A program made the position numbers and the translations under genes. From positions 12,769-76,768 of the forward strand of contig CAMZNS010000010.1 in NCBI GenBank assembly GCA_947313855.1: a DNA stretch of 64,000 nucleotides, written 5' to 3'. Under the pieces are notes generated by a model, which saw only the letters and a list, made by a program, of their open reading frames with translations, had not been told where the DNA came from and did no database searches. Origin of the DNA: an uncultured Deferribacteraceae bacterium. GTDB lineage: Bacteria; Chrysiogenota; Deferribacteres; CAMZNJ01. Positions 9,806 through 61,672 of the stretch are shown here, piece by piece (position 1 is the first letter of the stretch; the number at the start of each line of letters is the position of its first letter).

Positions 9806-9889
9806 AACAGACGCACAGACGCACAGACGCACAGACGCACAGACGCACAGACGCACAGACGCACAGACGCACAGACGCACAGACGCACA
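9806..9889. repeat. 8-bp tandem repeat (cagacgca x about 10)
   Basis: Direct reading. Immediately after the stop of the FadL-like gene. Confidence 0.9.
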
Positions 9890-14388: not shown

Positions 14389-14544
14389 CCCGCACGGCTG
14401 GCAATTGGCACGGCTGGTAATTGGCACGGCTAGTAATTGGCACGGCTGGTAATTGGCACGGCTAGTAATTGGCACGGCTGGCAATTGGCACGGCTAGTAA
14501 TTGGCACGGCTAGTAATTGGCACGGCTGGTAATTGGCACGGCTA
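14389..14544. repeat. 17-bp tandem repeat (ggcacggctggtaattg x about 9, with g/c and g/a variants)
   Basis: Direct reading. Lies between ccmA and ccmB. Confidence 0.9.
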
Positions 14545-20262: not shown

Positions 20263-20452
20263 GTTGTGCGTTTGCAATGTTGTGCGTTGGTAGCGTTGCG
20301 TTTGCAATGTTGGTGTTGACCGCGTTGCGTTTGCAATGTTGTGCGTTGACCGCGTTGCGTTTGCAATGTTGTGCGTTGACCGCGTTGCGTTTGCAATGTT
20401 GTGCGTTGGTAGCGTTGCGTTTGCAATGTTGGTGTTGACCACGTTGCGTTGG
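20260..20452. repeat. About 30-bp tandem repeat x6 (core gcgttgcgtttgcaatgttg with variable 10-bp linkers)
   Basis: Direct reading. No unique spacers, so not CRISPR. Confidence 0.9.
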
Positions 20453-21287: not shown

Positions 21288-21592
21288 CGGGCAGCGTGGC
21301 ACAGCTTGAGTCGGCGTTGCGTTATGTTGGCGTATTCGCGTTGCAGTTGCGTTGCAGTTGCGTTGCACAGCTTGAGTCGGCGTTGCGTTATGTTGGCGTA
21401 TTCGCGTTGCAGTTGCGTTGCAGTTGCGTGGCACAGCTTGAGTCGGCGTTGCGTTATGTTGGCGTATTCGCGTTGCAGTTGCGTTGCACAGCTTGAGTCG
21501 GCGTTGCGTTATGTTGGCGTATTCGCGTGGCAGTTGCGTGGCACAGCTTGAGTCGGCGTTGCGTTATGTTGGCGTATTCGCGTTGCAGTTTT
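21288..21592. repeat. About 60-66-bp tandem repeat x5 (ggcacagcttgagtcggcgttgcgttatgttggcgtattcgcgttgcagttgcgttgca...)
   Basis: Direct reading. Units contain nested gcgttgcagtt sub-repeats. No unique spacers. Confidence 0.9.
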
Positions 21593-33006: not shown

Positions 33007-34659
33007 ATGTTTTTTATGAAGACAAGGTATGTATTACTTTACTTATTAGGCATGGCAATAATCGCAACCTACATGCTGACTGCAGTGGCGTGGGCTGAAT
33101 CGGATGACCTTGACTCCGAAAATACCACCAGAAATACCACCGAAAATACCGACAACTACAGCGACGCCGGAAGCGACACAGCAGCGTACGACTTCGCATA
33201 CAACACCAGTGTGGACTATCGAAGCATACGAGAACGTGCCATACAATTCTCCACCACCACGGCCGTCAACAACATGAACAGCATAAACAACAACAACCTC
33301 ATACTCGCCAACATATTTATCTATAACCAAAGCCAGCAAAAAAACGTTGCATTTGTTGACAAAAGCAACCTCACAATATATGTGGGAACTTACCAAGGCG
33401 ATAAACTCGAAATAACCGATACATTCGACATCCTAGTCGGTGAAGCAGAGGGGGACAAAGTACGCGAAGGGGATCGAAAAACACCCGAAGGGGTCTACTA
33501 CACCGTGGACTACCTAAGCAATAAATACCTCACAAACCGATACGGAAACCAAGTGGGAAATATCTACGGCACAGGAGCTTTCCCCATCAACTACCCCAAC
33601 ATTGTCGACAAAATAGAAGGGCGAGGCGGAAGCGGTATCTGGATACACGGACTCAACCCCGAAAAACACAAACCCGTTACCCTCGGGTGCATCGCCATGG
33701 GGAACGAACGATTCGACCGACTAATGACCTACATGAACGTAGGGGTGACCACGGTCATCGGCGAAACACTAAACTTTACCCCCGACAGGGATGCCTACCT
33801 AAAGGAAAAAACTCGCTACTACAACTTCATCGAAAACTTCACAAACGCTTGGAGCACAAACAATTACGACGCTTACGCCGAAATGTTCCACCAACAGTTT
33901 AGAACACCAGCAGGGGTCAGGCGTGGAAGCTTCCTTGGACGCAAAAAAAGCATAATGGATTACGGACTCTCAATCAACAAACAAACAAACAAAAACATTA
34001 CCAACACAACAAACACCGTGGAAACAACAGGGGCAACTCTTGCCGAAAACAGACGCATCGCACAAATGCTCAAAGGGAACAAACTAATCACCTTCAACAA
34101 CCTAACAGTATTCGTTGAGCGAGACCTAGTTGTCTACGACTTCAACCAACTCTACGCAACCAACAACCTCATCTCCTACGGCAATAAGCGTTACTACGTC
34201 AAAGATACTGCCAACGAACTCGATGGACGCAACGGACGCAACGGACGCAACGGACTGCAGGTAATATCGGAAGAGTTCACACCCAGCGATGCCAACACCA
34301 AAAAAGAGGCGATTATGCCTTACGTGCAAACATTCCTGCAAACGTGGATACAGGCTTGGGAAACCAAAGATGTGGACGGCTACACAGCAATGTACTCGCC
34401 GGCATTCCGCCACAAAGGCACAAACATGGGGCTAAGACAGTTTGCCGCATACAAACAAGGCGTATTCCAGAGGGCGGGGAACATCTCCGTGGAATACTCC
34501 AACGTAACAATCGAATCCATTGCCGCAGGTAGTGTTACCGTGAGCTTTACACAAAAATACTCATCAGACACCGTCGCCGATACGGGCAAAAAAGTCTTAG
34601 TGCTAACAGGGCGACCCGATCTATTCAGTATCCGCTCCGAAGCTTGGTTCAAACTGTAA
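33007..34659 (+). CDS. L,D-transpeptidase (YkuD domain) with two C-terminal NTF2/SnoaL-like (DUF4440-type) domains
   Basis: Signal peptide. Catalytic GSGIWIHGLNPEKHKPVTLGCIAMGN (His...Gly-Cys). Two copies of the pattern F..W..AW...D.D.Y..MF downstream. In-frame GRNGRNGRNG (34225-34253). Confidence 0.7.
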   Translation: MFFMKTRYVLLYLLGMAIIATYMLTAVAWAESDDLDSENTTRNTTENTDNYSDAGSDTAAYDFAYNTSVDYRSIRERAIQFSTTTAVNNMNSINNNNLILANIFIYNQSQQKNVAFVDKSNLTIYVGTYQGDKLEITDTFDILVGEAEGDKVREGDRKTPEGVYYTVDYLSNKYLTNRYGNQVGNIYGTGAFPINYPNIVDKIEGRGGSGIWIHGLNPEKHKPVTLGCIAMGNERFDRLMTYMNVGVTTVIGETLNFTPDRDAYLKEKTRYYNFIENFTNAWSTNNYDAYAEMFHQQFRTPAGVRRGSFLGRKKSIMDYGLSINKQTNKNITNTTNTVETTGATLAENRRIAQMLKGNKLITFNNLTVFVERDLVVYDFNQLYATNNLISYGNKRYYVKDTANELDGRNGRNGRNGLQVISEEFTPSDANTKKEAIMPYVQTFLQTWIQAWETKDVDGYTAMYSPAFRHKGTNMGLRQFAAYKQGVFQRAGNISVEYSNVTIESIAAGSVTVSFTQKYSSDTVADTGKKVLVLTGRPDLFSIRSEAWFKL

Positions 34660-48825: not shown

Positions 48826-49320
48826 GTGTTGCCGGGTGTTATGGGGGGGCTATGCCCGTCCACGCCCACGTACAACCGTCCACGCCCACGCACAACCGTC
48901 CACGCCCACGCCCACTCACAACCGTCCACGCCCACGCACAACCGTCCACGACCACGCACAACCGTCCACGCCCACGCACAACCGTCCACGACCACGCCCA
49001 CGTACAACCTCGTACAACCGTCCACGCCCACGCACAACCGTCCACGCCCACGCACAACCGTTCACGCCCACGCACAACCGTCCACGACCACGCACAACCG
49101 TCCACGACCACGCACAACCGTCCACGCCCACGCACAACCGCCCACGCCCACACACAACCCCCCACCCCCACACACACCCCCCCACCCCCCCACCCACCCC
49201 CCCCCCCGCCCACCCGCCCCCCCCCCCCCACACCCGACCCCGCCCACGCACAACCGTCCACGACCACGCACAACCGTCCACGACCACGCACTCATCTTTC
49301 CCCACAATCCCGACTTCGTT
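48826..49320. repeat. About 500-bp array of a 21-bp tandem repeat (ccacgcccacgcacaaccgtc x about 20, with a/c variants), decaying into poly-C tracts (runs of 11 and 13 C)
   Basis: Direct reading. All six frames are open through it (ORF-track ORFs of 150-218 aa here are repeat artefacts). Minus strand carries G-runs. Confidence 0.9.
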
Positions 49321-50204: not shown

Positions 50205-51314
50205 CTAGTTGAAGTCCACGCTAACAAACGGCTCACCAATGGACTCAGCAAGCTGTTTGTGCACAATTTTGCCGTTGTACACATTTAGTCCGTTTTTGAG
50301 GTGTGTATTTTCGGCGAGTGCTTTCGAGATGCCTTTGTTGGCGAGTTCTACGATAAAGGGTATTGTGGCGTTGTTTAGTGCTATGGTGGATGTTTTGGCA
50401 ACGCCGCCCGGCATGTTGGCAACGCAGTAGTGGATTATGCCGTCCACTTCGAACACAGGGTTGTCGTAGCTTGTTGGCTTGGAGGTTTCAAAGCAGCCAC
50501 CCTGATCGATGGATACGTCCACGAGTACGGAGCCTTTTTTCATGGTTTTGAGCATCTCTTTGGTAACAAGTTTTGTAGCTTTGGCACCGGGGATGAGTGC
50601 TGCTCCAACAACGATGTCGGCTTCGGCCACACTTTTTGCGATTGCGTCTTTGGAGGAGTACAGGGTGGTGATTTTGTTGCCGTAAAGTGCGTCTAGTTGT
50701 CTGAGGCTGTTCATGTTTCTGTCAAGGGCGACAACTTTTGCACCGATACCGATGGCTGTTGCGATGGCGTTGCTTCCAACCACACCGGCACCGATAACGC
50801 AAACGTTACCTTGGGCTACACCCGGAACGCCGTTGAGTAGTACACCGGAGCCGTTGTTGCTTTTGAGTAGGAATTGGCATCCGCTGAGTATTGAGAGTCG
50901 TCCAGCGACTTCGCTCATGGGTGCGAGTAGTGGTAGTCGTCCGTTGTTGTCGGTTACGGTTTCGTAAGCGATGGCAGTGGATTTGGATTCTTTGAGTAGT
51001 TTTGTTTGTTCGGGTAGTGCTGCTAGGTGTAGGTAGGTGAAGATTGTGTGTGATTTGGTGAGCAGTAGGCATTCGTCGAGTGTTGGTTCTTTGACTTTGA
51101 CGAGTAGTTCTGATTTTTGGAAGAGTTCTTCCACAGTGTCAACGATGGTTGCACCAACATTTTTATAATCGTTGTCGGAAAATCCGATTGCTTCGCCGAG
51201 TCCTTTTTGTATAAAAACGGTATGTCCGTGCTGTACTAGTTCGATAACGCTGGAGGGGATGAGGCTAGCACGATATTCGTGTACTTTAGTTTCTTTTATT
51301 GCTCCAATTTTCAT
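50205..51314 (-). CDS. ald: Alanine dehydrogenase
   Basis: N-terminal MKIGAIKETKVHEYRASLIPSSV. Rossmann GAGVVGSNA. 369 aa, AlaDH/PNT family. Confidence 0.85.
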   Translation of the reverse strand: MKIGAIKETKVHEYRASLIPSSVIELVQHGHTVFIQKGLGEAIGFSDNDYKNVGATIVDTVEELFQKSELLVKVKEPTLDECLLLTKSHTIFTYLHLAALPEQTKLLKESKSTAIAYETVTDNNGRLPLLAPMSEVAGRLSILSGCQFLLKSNNGSGVLLNGVPGVAQGNVCVIGAGVVGSNAIATAIGIGAKVVALDRNMNSLRQLDALYGNKITTLYSSKDAIAKSVAEADIVVGAALIPGAKATKLVTKEMLKTMKKGSVLVDVSIDQGGCFETSKPTSYDNPVFEVDGIIHYCVANMPGGVAKTSTIALNNATIPFIVELANKGISKALAENTHLKNGLNVYNGKIVHKQLAESIGEPFVSVDFN

Positions 51315-51594
51315 AATTATACTTCTCCTTTCTAAATTTAGTATGTTTTCATTATTTATTAAGATGGTATAAAAATTTCATATTGTCAAGATAATTTTTC
51401 CCGAGGTTTAGTATCGCTATGGAACACAAGGGTTTTGAGAACTGCTTTTTTTTTTGCCTTTAGGGTGAAATTAGTTGTACCAATTGTTGTGGATTTGTGC
51501 CATAGTATTAATATGTTGTACTGCGAAAAGCTACTAATCAACTCTGACATGTGTGGTACGACAGGTCAATAACTTTCAGCGAGGTATATAAAAT

Positions 51595-52422
51595 ATGATG
51601 AAAGTTACAACTATGGGTATGATGCTAACCTTTATACTTGCCCTAAGCGGAATCGCAGTTGCTGCCCCCGGCGACGTTGTCGTCTACAACAAAACTAGTG
51701 GCACAACCGTTGTCCTTGATAGCGAAGCGGACTCTGTACCCGGTGGTGTAAGTGGGTTCAGCTTCCAAAATACAGTTATTCTTGGTGCAGAGTTCAGCGA
51801 CCGTCCATACAAAAGCTTCTCGCCAGGAAGAAGTGGCGATAGTGCCTCCTATGTCGGTTCCTACTACTCCAACCTCGTGGACACCAGCATATTCCGTGCC
51901 AAACTAGGGTCGTCGGTGGAATTTAACCGACGAAACGCAGCTACACTCTACTTCGTATACCAAGGCACAGTCCTCAATGACGCATACGGAATACTTACCG
52001 ACGGCGAACTTGCCTCTCTAGACGACTCGTGGCCGTACTACAAAATCGCCGGATACCTAAACGGTGCCGGTGCCGAATTCGAATACGGCTTCAGAATATT
52101 CCCAGCACTAAGCATAAACCCGTTTATCGGTGGCTACATCTCAAGGGGAATGGTCTGTGCAGAGGACGACTACAGCGACAAATACCTTGCCGCAACAACT
52201 ACAGCACCCGAACGCTTTCGTGAATGCTACAACGTTAAGGCAAGCAACTACGATCTAGGCTCACGCCTTGTTCTACACACAAGGTTCAACGTCGAACCGT
52301 ACGTCGGCTTCGCCTACTCGCAGGCAAACATGAGAGGGAAACCGTACGAAGCTGTGGGCTACACCGTGGGGATACAAACACGCTTTGCAAGCTCGTTCAC
52401 ATCATTTGTCGTAGCAGAATAG
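51595..52422 (+). CDS. Secreted beta-rich paralogue P1 (array of five)
   Basis: Signal peptide ending LSGIAVAAPGD. Family motif EPYVGFAYSQANM...KPYE. Cys-x24-Cys pair. Confidence 0.6.
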   Translation: MMKVTTMGMMLTFILALSGIAVAAPGDVVVYNKTSGTTVVLDSEADSVPGGVSGFSFQNTVILGAEFSDRPYKSFSPGRSGDSASYVGSYYSNLVDTSIFRAKLGSSVEFNRRNAATLYFVYQGTVLNDAYGILTDGELASLDDSWPYYKIAGYLNGAGAEFEYGFRIFPALSINPFIGGYISRGMVCAEDDYSDKYLAATTTAPERFRECYNVKASNYDLGSRLVLHTRFNVEPYVGFAYSQANMRGKPYEAVGYTVGIQTRFASSFTSFVVAE

Positions 52423-52474
52423 AACGTACAATTAAACCGAATACACTGAATACACTGAATACGGGGGGGGAGCA

Positions 52475-53221
52475 ATGAGGACGATTATACTATTTGGAAG
52501 CATGCTTGTATTAACACTGAGTGGGGTTGCCTATGGGGCACCAGGTGTTACTGTCATACCCAACCCTGATGAGCCTGTCAACCTTCAACCACTTGATAGA
52601 GCCGACAGCATGGCCATTGCCGACAATGAAGTTTCCAACAGGAAACCTATTGTGATAGACTTTAGCCTAGGAACATCAACCTACTCGGCCATAAAGAAGA
52701 ATAATCCCGTTTACGATACAGGGACGTCTTCCAATAGTATTATCAGAATAAATATAGGCTCCTACAAAAAAGTTGGTGGCAATGGAGGTGTTTTCGAATA
52801 CTTCTTTGGCTACCAAGGCTTAGAATTAGGGGATGGAGTATTTATTATCTCCAAAGATGAACTCGCCGCCTCAAACTACACAACAACAGTGAGCACCATG
52901 GATGGGCTCGGTGTAGGTGCTGCCTACTTTGTCAGGGTTGTGCCCAATGTGGGCATAGGATCGCGGGTTCAAGCTTACTCCTCGGGGGTTACGACCTGTG
53001 TAGGGGCGGACTCATACCGACCTGAACTCTACGACCAGAACTGCCGTAATTTCAAAGGGTACAACGCCGATGTGGATCTAACTGTAAAATACTATGGCAA
53101 AAGTGGGCTCAGTGCCTACCTTAGTCTACTGCAGTCCTACGCAAACATAAGGGACAGAAGCTTTACAGGAACAGGAGCTGTGCTAGGAATCGCCTACAGC
53201 TTCAGACCTATTTTTCAGTAA
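52475..53221 (+). CDS. Secreted beta-rich paralogue P2
   Basis: Signal peptide LSGVAYGAPG. Cys-x15-Cys. Gly/aromatic-rich. Confidence 0.6.
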   Translation: MRTIILFGSMLVLTLSGVAYGAPGVTVIPNPDEPVNLQPLDRADSMAIADNEVSNRKPIVIDFSLGTSTYSAIKKNNPVYDTGTSSNSIIRINIGSYKKVGGNGGVFEYFFGYQGLELGDGVFIISKDELAASNYTTTVSTMDGLGVGAAYFVRVVPNVGIGSRVQAYSSGVTTCVGADSYRPELYDQNCRNFKGYNADVDLTVKYYGKSGLSAYLSLLQSYANIRDRSFTGTGAVLGIAYSFRPIFQ

Positions 53222-53296
53222 AATAAATAGGCTAGACACAAGGGGTTTATCATGTTATATAATCTGTATACTACTTTAAAAGGAAGGAGATAGAGT

Positions 53297-53992
53297 ATGA
53301 GACATATAATACTAACTGCCATGGTTGCAGTTTTAACCGTATCAGGAGTGGCGATGGCTGCACCGGGCGACGATCAAAACAGCAAAGGTGCCTTCGTTGT
53401 TCTTGGCTTTGGAGCAGGAGCAACATACTACACTACCCTAGACGACAACCTCTTCGACCTAGGATTAATACCCAGTGTTTACAGCAAATTCGGGCTCGGT
53501 TACAAGTTTAACGAAAAAAATCAGTTTAGCGTTTACATGACTCCCACATACGCCCTTCTAGACGGAGCAGGCTTCTTCACCTCCCAAGGGTATGTTTTGG
53601 CGGACAAACCAAAATCTAACGAGAGCTTTACCACTGCTGGCGGAGTAATGTCAGGGGGGGGCTTGAGTGCTGACTATGTCTTCAAACCATCCCCATCTTA
53701 CGGATTTGGACCCTATGTTAGCGGCAAAAGGTACACAGCCTTAACCTGCGACAACTTCTACAAAGAGAACTCCAAAAACATGACCTGCGACTACTCTAAG
53801 GCTAGCAGTTTTGAAACCGGCTTGTCGGCTAACTACTATTTCAGCAATGGCTTCAACCCATTCATTACCCTAGGGTACACACAGCTGAACTTCGATTCGC
53901 ATCCTTACCAGGGTGCCAATGTGGTTGTCGGTCTCAACTACATCTTTACCCCCGCTCGCGACTCCAAAACAGCCGCACTAATCCTATTTTAG
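53297..53992 (+). CDS. Secreted beta-rich paralogue P3
   Basis: Signal peptide VSGVAMAAPGD. NPFITLGYTQLNFDSHPYQG motif. Cys-x12-Cys. Terminal Phe. Confidence 0.6.
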   Translation: MRHIILTAMVAVLTVSGVAMAAPGDDQNSKGAFVVLGFGAGATYYTTLDDNLFDLGLIPSVYSKFGLGYKFNEKNQFSVYMTPTYALLDGAGFFTSQGYVLADKPKSNESFTTAGGVMSGGGLSADYVFKPSPSYGFGPYVSGKRYTALTCDNFYKENSKNMTCDYSKASSFETGLSANYYFSNGFNPFITLGYTQLNFDSHPYQGANVVVGLNYIFTPARDSKTAALILF

Positions 53993-54029
53993 TACGGTGA
54001 GTGGAGCTCTGCAGGATTATGAGCAGACC

Positions 54030-54080
54030 ATAAACCATCGATTATCGACTATCGACCATCGATTATCGACCATCGACTAA
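54030..54080. repeat. Intergenic tandem repeat (catcgattatcgac / catcgac units)
   Basis: accatcgattatcgactatcgaccatcgattatcgaccatcgacta. Confidence 0.85.
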
Positions 54081-54209
54081 TCAGAAACAGGGGAGGGTGC
54101 CATGTGCCCCTCCCTTTTTTGCGTGTAAAGTACCCCCAACCACTTGAAAGCGTGTCGCCATGTGCCTATATTTTGTTTGGTAATATGCCACGACGGAGGG
54201 GGAATATTT

Positions 54210-54890
54210 ATGAATACTACAATCACACAAATAGGTATGTTGCTCTGTGCAATACTCCTTTTCAGCGTTGCGAGTGTTGCCACTTCGGCACCAGAGGATA
54301 CCGGCACAGCTAGTAATAAGGTTGCGGAAGACACAAATATCGCCCTTGGGTTCGGTGTCCACGCTGACCATGGGTTTTACACCAGCACCAACGATGAATT
54401 ATCCAGCCTAGGACTACTCAGCTCCCTTTACCTAACGGCGGGGTTGAGCAAAATTTACAAAGAGCAACATGAGCTGAGTGCCTACCTAGGCTACCAATTA
54501 ACAGCTCTAGAATCATACTACGGCGACAGTAGGGCTGATGCGAATCGCCCCGATGGTGCAACAGGGTATCTTAACGGTGTGGGCGTTGAAGGGTACTACA
54601 CCTTCCGACCATACAAATACCTAACAGCAGGAGGGTTCGCAACACTTTACGCCTCCACAGGGCAGGATTGTAGCGAAGAGAGTCGCACGTCATGCAGTGT
54701 CGCCAAAGCAAACAAAATCGACATAGGCTTGACACTAGGAACCAACATCGGCGAAAGCTTCAACCCCTACATGTATGTGGGCTACTCGCAAATGAACTTC
54801 CGACTCAAGCCGTACGAATCAACAAGGATGGGCATAGGCATCAAAGGACGTATCACAAATACACGTCTGTTTGGTGCTGACGCAGGATAG
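54210..54890 (+). CDS. Secreted beta-rich paralogue P4
   Basis: Start ATG 54210 (RBS GGAGGGGG). Signal peptide ...SVATSAPED. NPYMYVGYSQMNFRLKPYES motif. Cys-x7-Cys. Confidence 0.6.
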   Translation: MNTTITQIGMLLCAILLFSVASVATSAPEDTGTASNKVAEDTNIALGFGVHADHGFYTSTNDELSSLGLLSSLYLTAGLSKIYKEQHELSAYLGYQLTALESYYGDSRADANRPDGATGYLNGVGVEGYYTFRPYKYLTAGGFATLYASTGQDCSEESRTSCSVAKANKIDIGLTLGTNIGESFNPYMYVGYSQMNFRLKPYESTRMGIGIKGRITNTRLFGADAG

Positions 54891-54986
54891 TGCTACACAT
54901 TTTACCATATAATAATTTGTACCCCCCCTTGAAAATATATTCTCTTTATGTTATGATTATTTCAGCTTTAATGCGGGAGTGTATTT

Positions 54987-55727
54987 ATGGCGAATAATGC
55001 GAGTACGATAAAGGTGGGTCGTAAATATATCGTTCTATCAGGGCTGGTCTTGCTAATATTAAGTACAGTTCTCTTTTCAACCATTGCGGTCGCAGCCCCC
55101 AACATTACTCCCCCTGCAGATAAAAGCGGTGCTGTTAGTGTTCCCTACGACGAAAACCCTACAACAGGTGCTGTTACGAGTCTTTCGTTTAGTGCCTCCT
55201 TAGAGGTTCCCGTGTTTGGTCGCTCTAACTATGCCGACGCCTATGGCTTATTTACTAGATACCCCGCCGTAGGCTTTACAGCTGGGTTCTCCACCCTTGT
55301 GAACCCCCATCACGAATTTCGATACAGTGTCGGTTTTAAGCGTGCTTTCCCCATAACCGTGATAGATAAAATTATTGAATACCCCCAACTCATGACTTTT
55401 ATGTCGTACAACAGTGTGGGGTTAGAGGGTAGTTACTACTATCGACCTGTACGTTGGTTTGGCATAGGACCTACTGCTAAAACTTATGTTGTGTTGGACA
55501 GAAAACCGAAGGGAATTGGTTTGCTCACAGGGACTAGGATCATGCAAGAAACAGAAGAGCTCTCCAATGCGATACCTATCGTTAGCGATATCGGTGGACA
55601 GGTACGGTACTACACCAAGGGTCGTCATTCGTTGTATGCGTCGTTCCTGCTTTCCAATTACTACAAGGGTAGCGATTCGTGGTTCTACACCCATGTTTAT
55701 TCAATAGGCGTAATTGTTGATTTGTAA
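54987..55727 (+). CDS. Secreted beta-rich paralogue P5 (most divergent, no Cys pair)
   Basis: Signal peptide TIAVAAPN. Similar size and Gly/Tyr-rich composition. Confidence 0.5.
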   Translation: MANNASTIKVGRKYIVLSGLVLLILSTVLFSTIAVAAPNITPPADKSGAVSVPYDENPTTGAVTSLSFSASLEVPVFGRSNYADAYGLFTRYPAVGFTAGFSTLVNPHHEFRYSVGFKRAFPITVIDKIIEYPQLMTFMSYNSVGLEGSYYYRPVRWFGIGPTAKTYVVLDRKPKGIGLLTGTRIMQETEELSNAIPIVSDIGGQVRYYTKGRHSLYASFLLSNYYKGSDSWFYTHVYSIGVIVDL

Positions 55728-55729
55728 CC

Positions 55730-56020
55730 GACGGAGGTGCTGACGGTCGTGTTGGCGGTGCTGACGGTCGTGTTGGCGGTGGCGACGGTGGTGTTGGCGG
55801 TGGCGCTGGTCGTGTCCGCGGTGCTTTCGGTCGGGGTGGCGGTGGTTTCGGTCGTGTTGGCGGTGGCGACGGTCGTGTTGGCGGTGCTGACGGTCGTGTT
55901 GGCGGTGGCGATGGTCGTGTTGGCGGTGGCGATGGTCGTGTTGGCGGTGGCGATGGTCGTGTTGGCGGTGGCGATGGTCGTGTTGGCGGTGGCGATGGCG
56001 GTGCAGTTCGGTGGCGATGG
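55730..56020. repeat. 21-bp tandem repeat x about 13 (ggtgctgacggtcgtgttggc with gcg/gat variants)
   Basis: Direct reading. Both strands are open through it (ORF-track artefacts 55697-56101 and 55737-56024). Confidence 0.9.
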
Positions 56021-56084
56021 CTGACTTTTGGGCGACGGGGCGACGGCGTTCCTGCTTGGCGGTGACAACTCGACTGCTAATCCC

Positions 56085-56663
56085 CTATGGCAGTTTCTCA
56101 ATCAACATGGTGTGTTGCGGGCGTAACCAGCCCTTGTTGTCAATGGTTTTCTCGAAGTGGAACTCTTTGCGACACATGGGTGTGTTGTCGTATGAGTCGT
56201 AGAAGTGGTAGCAGCACTCCTGCACGTATTTAAGGATTGTCCAGTGTTCAAACCTGCTTTTATACTGCAGTAGCACAACATGGTTGTCGCTTTTGGCAAT
56301 ATGTTTCTCCATAATCTCAAACAGATCCTCTTTCTCCCCTTTAAAAGTGTCTAGGTATGTGATTTTCATGTTTGTTTGCTGTTCGTCGGGCAGTTTGTAT
56401 CTACTGTAGTGTTCCACCAAGAACTTCATCTGCTCGTAGGTTATGCCATCGATAAACAGCTCCTCCATCCATCCTTCGCGTGTGTAAAACTGTTTTAGCA
56501 TGTCTAGTAGTAGTATGTTTGAGTCTTTGAATTTGATACCGTAAAGCAGTCGCACAAGGTTGAGGACGGTGTAAACGCCACACAACATGTTGTCACCTTG
56601 GGAGAGTGGATTGACCTTGTGGCTTTGGATATTGGCGTCGTCTAGTGTAAATATACTGCTCAC
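56085..56663 (-). CDS. Standalone papain-fold (peptidase C39-like) cysteine peptidase domain protein
   Basis: 192 aa, no signal peptide. QGDNMLCGVYTVLNLV (Q-x5-CG: oxyanion Gln plus catalytic Cys) and DNHVVLLQY (His motif), like the double-glycine-leader peptidase domain of ABC exporters but without the ABC transporter part. Confidence 0.4.
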   Translation of the reverse strand: MSSIFTLDDANIQSHKVNPLSQGDNMLCGVYTVLNLVRLLYGIKFKDSNILLLDMLKQFYTREGWMEELFIDGITYEQMKFLVEHYSRYKLPDEQQTNMKITYLDTFKGEKEDLFEIMEKHIAKSDNHVVLLQYKSRFEHWTILKYVQECCYHFYDSYDNTPMCRKEFHFEKTIDNKGWLRPQHTMLIEKLP

Positions 56664-56894: not shown

Positions 56895-57740
56895 ATGTTA
56901 TTCCAAGATATTATCATGAATCTGCAACGCTACTGGGCGGATAGGGGGTGCATCGTTACATCTGGCTTGGATATTGAAGTTGGTGCTGGTACGTTTAACC
57001 CCACAACATTCCTCCGATCATTGGGTGGCAAGCCGTTTAGTGCTGCCTATGTTGAGCCTAGCCGACGCCCAACTGATGGACGTTACGGGCAAAACCCCAA
57101 CAGACTCCAACAACACCATCAGTTCCAAGTTTTTCTCAAACCGTCACCCGATGATATTGTTGACATCTACCTAGGATCCTTGGAAATGCTAGGTATCAGG
57201 AGTTCTGAGCACGATATCCGCTTTGTGGAAGACAACTGGGAATCCCCCACCTTAGGTGCGTGGGGTTTAGGTTGGGAGGTCTGGCTGGACGGCATGGAGA
57301 TTACACAGTTTACCTACTTTCAACAGGTCGGCGGTATCGCCATGGAGATGGTTCCGGGTGAGATAACATACGGCTTGGAGCGAATAGCCATGCACCTGCA
57401 AGGGGTGGACAGCGTGTACGACCTCAAATGGAACGATAACATATCGTACGGCGATGTGTTTTTGCAAAACGAAGTTCAGCTGTCGAAATACAACTTCGAA
57501 CATGCCGACGTTGCAATGCTCTTCGGGTTGTTCGACACCTACCAACACGAATGCCATGCCCTTGTAGAGGCGAGCCTTCCCATACCGGCTTACGAATACT
57601 GTCTCAAGGCGAATCATGTGTTTAACTTGCTGGATGCACGTTCGGCTATTTCGGTGAACGAGCGGGCTGCGTATATCGGTCGCATTCGCAAGATGTCTGC
57701 TGGTTGTGCCTCTTTGTACCTTGAGGAGCTTGCGTCGTAA
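56895..57740 (+). CDS. glyQ: Glycyl-tRNA synthetase alpha subunit
   Basis: Near-colinear identity with E. coli GlyQ ([63 protein letters not shown]). Confidence 0.95.
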
Positions 57741-61486: not shown

Positions 61487-61672
61487 GTGTGCCCCGAGCA
61501 CGCTCACACACGCCCCGAGCACGCTCACACACGCCCGAGCACGCTCACACACGCCCGAGCACGCTCACACACGCCCGAGCACGCTCACACACGCCCGAGC
61601 ACGCTCACACGCCCCGAGCACGCTCACACGCCCGAGCACGCTCACACACGCCCGAGCACGCTCACACGCCCC
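61487..61672. repeat. About 19-bp tandem repeat x about 9 (cccgagcacgctcacacacg with length variants)
   Basis: Direct reading between rrf2 (+) and murD (-) 3' ends. Confidence 0.9.

Follow-up and report, generated by a model that had tools for sequence, protein, structure and literature searches.

A tandem array of five genes encoding secreted paralogues

The DNA analyzed here is a stretch of 64,000 nucleotides (the window) from contig CAMZNS010000010.1 of an uncultured Deferribacteraceae bacterium (GenBank assembly GCA_947313855.1). The list of its open reading frames contained an array of five plus-strand genes, designated P1–P5 (cf. Table 1), which was flanked by ald on one side and by a gene for a 192-amino-acid (aa) protein and glyQ on the other. 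An earlier note, made from the sequence alone, had described the five as divergent, beta-rich paralogues that carry signal peptides and are arranged in tandem, and this description was borne out by blastp comparisons and by the scores of a P1–P4 profile. The pairwise blastp alignments of P1–P4 scored between 44 and 78 bits, with 22–30% identity over nearly the full length, except for P2 and P4, which were connected only via P1 and P3. In a family alignment of 12 P1–P4 sequences from three genomes, 13 columns were invariant, both cysteines included, as was a lysine four residues past the second cysteine, and the invariant residues were restricted to A, F, G, Y, L, C, K, and N. Judged by sequence, P1–P4 are clear paralogues beyond doubt. 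P5 scored 30 bits against P4 in blastp with its signal peptide included. Against the P1–P4 hidden Markov model (HMM), mature P5 scored 14.2 bits, a value reached by none of 2000 shuffled sequences (maximum of 7.6), and its reversed sequence scored 1.2. It was also the sole further open reading frame of the window picked out by that profile. An hhalign comparison of P5 with P1–P4 placed 132 columns in register (E value of 3.4e-4, probability of only 38%), the strongest common stretch being NxVGxExxYxxRPxxxxGIGP. The homology among the five was thus above chance, and P5 is accepted as a divergent fifth member of the family.

By inspection, all five proteins start with a Sec-type signal peptide that comprises a basic n-region, a hydrophobic core, and a small-x-small (A-x-A) end followed by AP. 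The SG[VI]A.AAPG-like signal-peptide end that had been noticed before is real, and its A-A-P is invariant in P1–P5. None of the five proteins has a cysteine at position +1 after the cleavage site (a lipobox), which indicates that they are not lipoproteins. The C-terminal motif previously described for P1, P3, and P4 was recovered as well, and degenerate versions of it are also present in P2 and P5, while the last strand of all five proteins follows a G-x-x-[YTGV]-x-[FIL] pattern. A single cysteine loop had been proposed for four of the five proteins with a spacing of 7–24 residues; the loop was found in P1–P4, yet its measured spacing is 7–22 residues, and P5 contains no cysteine. The cysteine pair is invariant across all orthologues as well as in the distant relatives P0011–P0013, and the loop spacings are likewise conserved. 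A purine-rich Shine-Dalgarno-like motif precedes each of the five genes, and the presence of both signal peptides and ribosome-binding sites argues that P1–P5 are real genes. The P4 frame as listed opens at TTG 54144, but its orthologues and a GGAGG ribosome-binding site favor ATG 54210.

Predicted fold and topology

The model of P4 was a closed meander barrel of eight antiparallel strands, with Cys128 and Cys136 (mature numbering) atop strands 5 and 6. P5 was also modelled as an eight-stranded barrel, and alignment of P1 to the P4 model gave an eight-strand barrel with enlarged loops L1 and L3, although P1 could have extra strands, given its N-terminal extension of 45 aa and its large loop 1. 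The best rows of the structure comparison were barrels of the NspA, Ail, and OmpA type, not OmpW, and the top Foldseek matches belonged to the Ail/OmpX/Rck family (E value of 5e-9). In the strands of P4, one face had a mean hydropathy of +1.2 to +1.7 and the other of −0.4 to −1.7, which was clear in five of the eight (b1, b3, b5, b6, and b8). A hydrophobic face opposed to a small or polar one in most strands is expected of a lipid-embedded barrel. P4 matched the Pfam family OMP_b-brl (PF13505) with 22.5 bits, under the gathering threshold of 28.7, and P3 matched PagL with 17.8 bits, under the threshold of 23.

Both termini of an outer-membrane barrel are periplasmic, and the topology was deduced from this rule and the model. 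In this topology, the outward loops are L1–L4, and since the first cysteine ends strand 5 and the second begins strand 6, the pair sits at the neck of L3, where a disulfide is likely in P1–P4. Gaps between the paralogues (six pairs) amounted to 111 positions in the N-terminal extension and 126 in the outward loops, with very few in the strands and periplasmic turns. The surface-exposed, beta-rich proteins suggested earlier reappear as predicted outer-membrane barrels and hence as surface proteins. Based on the models, P1–P5 very probably represent a lineage-restricted, five-member family of eight-stranded outer-membrane barrels. It is a new sequence-orphan family inside a very familiar fold class.

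Distribution of the array

Syntenic loci and their taxonomy were gathered via glyQ. The whole five-gene array was found in synteny in three further loci (L001, L002, and L003), and a fourth, L084 (a Logan contig from run SRR23346875), carries P1–P4 next to ald and ends before the position of P5. The L001/L004 locus belongs to the uncultured Deferribacteraceae bacterium M_SnakePit_MAG_00002, named Candidatus Rimicarispirillum nautilei; in the vent shrimp Rimicaris exoculata, this filamentous bacterium is lodged between microvilli of the midgut (PMC9636832). The window was nearest to L003, with 97–99% aa identity in the flanking genes, and owing to this closeness it probably derives from the sister species Ca. 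R. atlantis. Its source is thus a Deferribacterota bacterium (Candidatus Rimicarispirillum) that lives as a symbiont in the midgut of Rimicaris shrimps. Judging by run number and date, the L084 reads probably stem from project PRJNA931729 on the gut of Rimicaris kairei (PMC10344455). The P1 orthologues shared 82–97% aa identity in L001–L003 and 54% in L084.

Word-indexed searches of 5.8 billion proteins matched only orthologues of the array genes. When 1.84 billion cluster representatives were searched exhaustively with an HMMER profile, six proteins were retrieved at E ≤ 0.001, five of them from this symbiont group and one a weak, N-terminally truncated metagenome relative; the same search revealed no member of the family in other Deferribacterota. 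The family was also missing from the surroundings of glyQ in L005 and L006, the closest of the other Deferribacterales (glyQ 69–70% identical), and, beyond P1–P5, neither copies nor fragments were found among the six-frame open reading frames of the 64-kb window. In the public metagenome-assembled genomes (MAGs), protein searches for extra copies yielded only clusters of the array genes, a result that would miss copies as divergent as P5. The only match from outside the shrimp-symbiont group, P0013 (L087:1418-1939, ENA ERZ23486813; E value of 2.9e-4), is a protein of 173 aa with a Cys-x12-Cys spacing whose gene adjoins a truncated PTS EIIC gene. It says little, since its N-terminus is missing and its contig is 2 kb long.

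Rates of evolution

Rates were compared between the window and L001, i.e., between two species-level clades. The array proteins were 76–86% identical, with nonsynonymous divergence (dN) of 0.074–0.13, and the ratio of dN to synonymous divergence (dS) was 0.16 for P1, 0.48 for P2, 0.22 for P3, 0.16 for P4, and 0.42 for P5. The neighboring genes had dN values of 0.005–0.024, with aa identities of 95.7% for ald, 94.8% for the 192-aa protein, and 98.9% for glyQ, and dN/dS of 0.06, 0.06, and 0.01, respectively. The array proteins therefore diverge 4–25 times faster than their neighbors. Relative to L084, they were 37–58% identical, in comparison with 87.5% for ald. The 192-aa protein, which shares 95–97% identity among strains at a dN/dS of 0.06, had no match in Pfam or NCBIfam.

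The diversifying selection that had been postulated did not emerge from these data. Pooled by predicted topology, dN/dS was 0.34 in the N-terminal extension, 0.23 in the outward loops, 0.16–0.22 in the strands, and 0.16 in the periplasmic turns, and no positive selection was found per gene or per topological class. The sole value above 1, that of the P2 loops (1.46), rests on four amino-acid changes and a near-zero dS. The values for whole genes and for loops indicate purifying selection on each of the five genes; the family is fast-evolving under weakened purifying selection, with no positive selection at this resolution.

Two genes differed from the others in their pattern of divergence. Nucleotide identity between the clades was 96–98% over most of P2 (52588–53187) and the core of P5 (55268–55467), compared with 76–88% in P1, P3, and P4 and mostly 90–94% (82–94% across windows of comparison) in the housekeeping flanks, and dS was 0.16 in P2 and 0.31 in P5 as against 0.33–0.60 in the other genes. 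This mosaic, low-dS pattern suggests either recent recombination between co-resident lineages or a chimeric MAG assembly.

Transcription signals, spacers, and repeats

A terminator-like hairpin follows P3, and promoter-like sites precede P4 and P5 (cf. Table 1); these signals are located in the two long spacers of the array. The hairpin is kept in position in all five loci, although the sequence of its stem differs in L084. Both promoter-like sites have 10 of 12 consensus matches and are conserved between strains, but the overall number of such matches was not above chance. These consensus matches suggest three transcription units, namely P1-P2-P3, P4, and P5.

The earlier note had further stated that the array is bracketed by repeat arrays. 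Both of these, at 54026–54079 and 55733–56047, are real, but a link to the gene array did not stand, since tandem repeats occur throughout the window and vary between strains. Repeats with units of 6–30 nt, and longer ones, are unusually dense, amounting to 49 TRF rows over the 64 kb, and lie mostly in intergenic spacers. Among four Rimicarispirillum loci, the orthologous spacers differ in repeat unit and copy number or lack repeats altogether. For instance, the P4-P5 spacer is 96 nt long in the window and consists of 230–325 nt of repeats in L001–L003. No tandem repeat was found inside any of the five coding regions, their signal-peptide parts included. When gene conversion was sought, the paralogues proved to have no nucleotide tracts in common that would point to it; the longest match spanned 37 nt at 70% and fell on their conserved C-terminal motif. 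Two homopolymer runs differ in length between strains: a poly-T at about 51445–51454, upstream of P1, is T10 in the window and T6 in another strain, and a poly-C at about 54921–54927, beside the −35-like hexamer of P5 and outside the promoter spacer, is C7 in the window and C9-10 in L003.

Several other features were observed in passing. The repeat at 48856–49291, which separates ald from an HTH_3 regulator gene, consists of a 20-nt unit in about 22 copies followed by a C-rich tract (49158–49247) and yields long spurious open reading frames on both strands. A gene at 33007–34659 encodes a 550-aa protein with a YkuD L,D-transpeptidase domain and a C-terminal Cds6_C/SnoaL-like NTF2 domain. Downstream of the locus in L002 and L003, a gene for 1184–1236 aa with two Mur ligase middle domains (by Pfam for L003) suggests a fused Mur ligase.

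Table 1. Positions of the array genes, their neighbors, and associated sequence features in the window. L001–L003 are the syntenic loci described in the text.
Feature	Position	Strand	Length	Description
ald	50205–51314	minus		alanine dehydrogenase
P1	51595–52422	plus	275 aa	signal peptide of 23 aa, then N-terminal extension of about 45 aa; Cys-x22-Cys
P2	52475–53221	plus	248 aa	signal peptide of 21 aa, Pro-rich N-terminal extension, predicted barrel; Cys-x14-Cys
P3	53297–53992	plus	231 aa	signal peptide of 21 aa, predicted barrel; Cys-x12-Cys; C-terminus ...ALILF (terminal Phe)
Terminator-like hairpin	54090–54120	plus		GGGAGGG, loop, CCCTCCC, then T6; 3' of P3
Promoter-like site upstream of P4	54144–54172	plus		TTGAAA-17-TATATT; conserved in L001–L003; consensus match only
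P4	54210–54890	plus	226 aa	from ATG 54210; signal peptide of 26 aa; Cys-x7-Cys
Promoter-like site upstream of P5	54929–54957	plus		TTGAAA-17-TATGAT, extended TG; consensus match only
P5	54987–55727	plus	246 aa	long signal peptide of 36 aa; without Cys; divergent member
192-aa gene	56085–56663	minus	192 aa	always between P5 and glyQ
glyQ	56895–57740	plus		
Tandem repeats (examples)	9807–9889; 14392–14543; 20267–20450; 21294–21590; 48856–49291; 55733–56047; 61493–61667			

Comparison with known outer-membrane proteins

The predicted barrels resemble several known systems in part. With Ail, OmpX, and Rck of the Enterobacteriaceae, they share eight strands and protruding beta-sheet edges, which are used for host binding in the Ail family; however, P1–P5 are about 50–100 residues longer, have N-terminal extensions and large loops, do not match the Ail_Lom family of Pfam, and come from the phylum Deferribacterota. 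No sequence similarity to neisserial barrels of the NspA and Opa type was detectable. Opa carries phase-variable pentamer repeats in the region coding for its signal peptide, whereas P1–P5 have neither such repeats nor a Pfam match; the NspA and Opa genes are scattered, whereas P1–P5 are clustered in one array and their orthologues are under purifying selection; and, unlike in NspA and Opa, a cysteine pair closes loop 3 in P1–P4. In contrast to OmpA, the proteins have no C-terminal peptidoglycan-binding domain, since they end 0–14 residues past strand 8, and no OmpA match in Pfam. As to OMP_b-brl and the membrane beta-barrel clan, which includes the N-terminal domains of OmpA and OprF, only P4 came near, below the threshold given above, and the other four proteins and seven relatives were unmatched. 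The organization in tandem divergent outer-membrane barrel paralogues of a host-restricted bacterium recalls OMP-1, Msp2, and P44 of the Anaplasmataceae, but P1–P5 have no Surface_Ag_2 match, form much smaller barrels, and number only five copies, with no expression-site architecture and no pseudogene cassettes in the window (coverage of the genome beyond it came solely from protein databases).

Alternative explanations

The main rival retains the same fold and location but assigns the proteins a housekeeping function, either as major structural outer-membrane proteins or as narrow channels of the OmpW/OprG/AlkL type for small hydrophobic molecules, with paralogues specialized by substrate or condition and not by host contact. 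We consider it rather unlikely, because (i) the structure matches favor NspA, Ail, and OmpA-type barrels over OmpW, (ii) absence of the family from other Deferribacterota among 1.84 billion proteins would be unusual for such a function, and (iii) the divergence is 4–25 times that of the neighboring genes. A role as porins, which the earlier note had listed among the candidates, is unlikely too, given that an eight-stranded barrel is too narrow for a general porin. Antigenic or phase variation, in which adjacent repeat arrays would drive either an alternating expression of the paralogues or their recombination, could draw on the tandem repeats in the spacers, on the homopolymer runs of variable length near the upstream regions of P1 and P5, and on the mosaic identity of P2 and P5, which suggests recombination between lineages. 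However, the repeats are window-wide and not specific to this locus, the coding and signal-peptide regions are free of them, the poly-C run is not part of the promoter spacer, the paralogues have no nucleotide tracts in common, and dN/dS is below 1 for every gene. Likewise, the window contains no donor cassettes or extra copies, and protein searches of public MAGs gave only clusters of the array genes. This explanation, also raised by the earlier note, is largely refuted and in our estimate highly improbable. Soluble secreted or periplasmic eight-stranded barrels, that is, ligand binders similar to lipocalin, YceI, or avidin, appear very unlikely. Outer-membrane enzymes modifying lipid A, of the PagL or PagP type, are the most improbable of all, as the weak PagL match is below threshold and limited to the N-terminal strands, and no His or Ser is invariant in the family alignment, while PagL needs both as catalytic residues.

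Other observations weigh against the interpretation of P1–P5 as outer-membrane barrels in contact with the host. The canonical C-terminal aromatic residue is present only in P3, as P1, P2, and P4 have 2–14 extra residues and P5 ends with Leu. The models were built on shallow alignments (8–10 sequences), with loop pLDDT below 50, and that of P5 is not independent, because P1–P4 served as its alignment rows. Pfam and NCBIfam scans of the five proteins and seven relatives yielded no match apart from those of P4 and P3, both below the gathering score, and the family profile had no match among the sequences of the Protein Data Bank (PDB) even at E 10. Furthermore, orthologue substitutions were only mildly enriched in the outward loops (18%, compared with 13–14% in the strands), and the fastest part, the N-terminal extension, is periplasmic by topology; relaxed constraint would fit these two findings as well as host interaction does.

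Proposed role and significance

Based on these data, we propose the following course of events. The proteins would be exported by the Sec pathway, cleaved after A-x-A, and inserted into the outer membrane as monomeric eight-stranded antiparallel beta-barrels of the NspA, Ail, OmpX, and OmpA-N type. Their long strands would reach past the membrane, and the four outward loops would form the exposed face. In P1–P4, loop 3 (7–22 residues) would be closed at its neck by the conserved cysteine pair; variable and probably disulfide-closed, it may be the main element distinguishing the paralogues, with further variation between them in the N-terminal extension and in loops 1 and 2. With roughly three putative transcription units (P1-P2-P3 followed by a terminator, P4, and P5), the paralogues would be displayed together, not switched. 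This constitutive surface set could then be the contact face with the host and serve in microvillar adhesion or in protection from host factors, as is the case for Ail, OmpX, NspA, and Opa.

Analogy with the matches of the NspA, Ail, OmpX, and Opa type, together with the close contact of the symbiont with host microvilli, makes host contact or adhesion the role that we favor, albeit tentatively. The interpretation as a whole, i.e., a barrel family that acts as a host-contact surface set, we regard as fairly probable; it blends a high confidence in the fold with a much lower one in the role. Lineage restriction, fast evolution, and conserved synteny of the predicted surface barrels make the array a concrete candidate set for host contact. 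The text of PMC9636832 makes no mention of outer membrane, adhesion, porin, or attachment, and PMC10344455 mentions the outer membrane only for type II secretion; thus, neither of these two papers on genomes of Rimicaris gut Deferribacterota discusses outer-membrane or attachment proteins.

For the typing of strains, the array is a useful marker. More speculatively, and unlikely as we hold it to be, the family might be a symbiosis-specific invention, in which the disulfide-closed loop 3 and the other loops of the co-displayed barrels bind distinct ligands of the midgut brush border and anchor the filaments between microvilli, and in which alleles recombine between co-resident species. Such exchange of alleles between co-resident symbiont species would account for the near-identity of P2 and of P5 from one species to the other. 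If this reading proved true, P1–P5 would become the first candidates for host-attachment determinants in an animal symbiont of the Deferribacterota.

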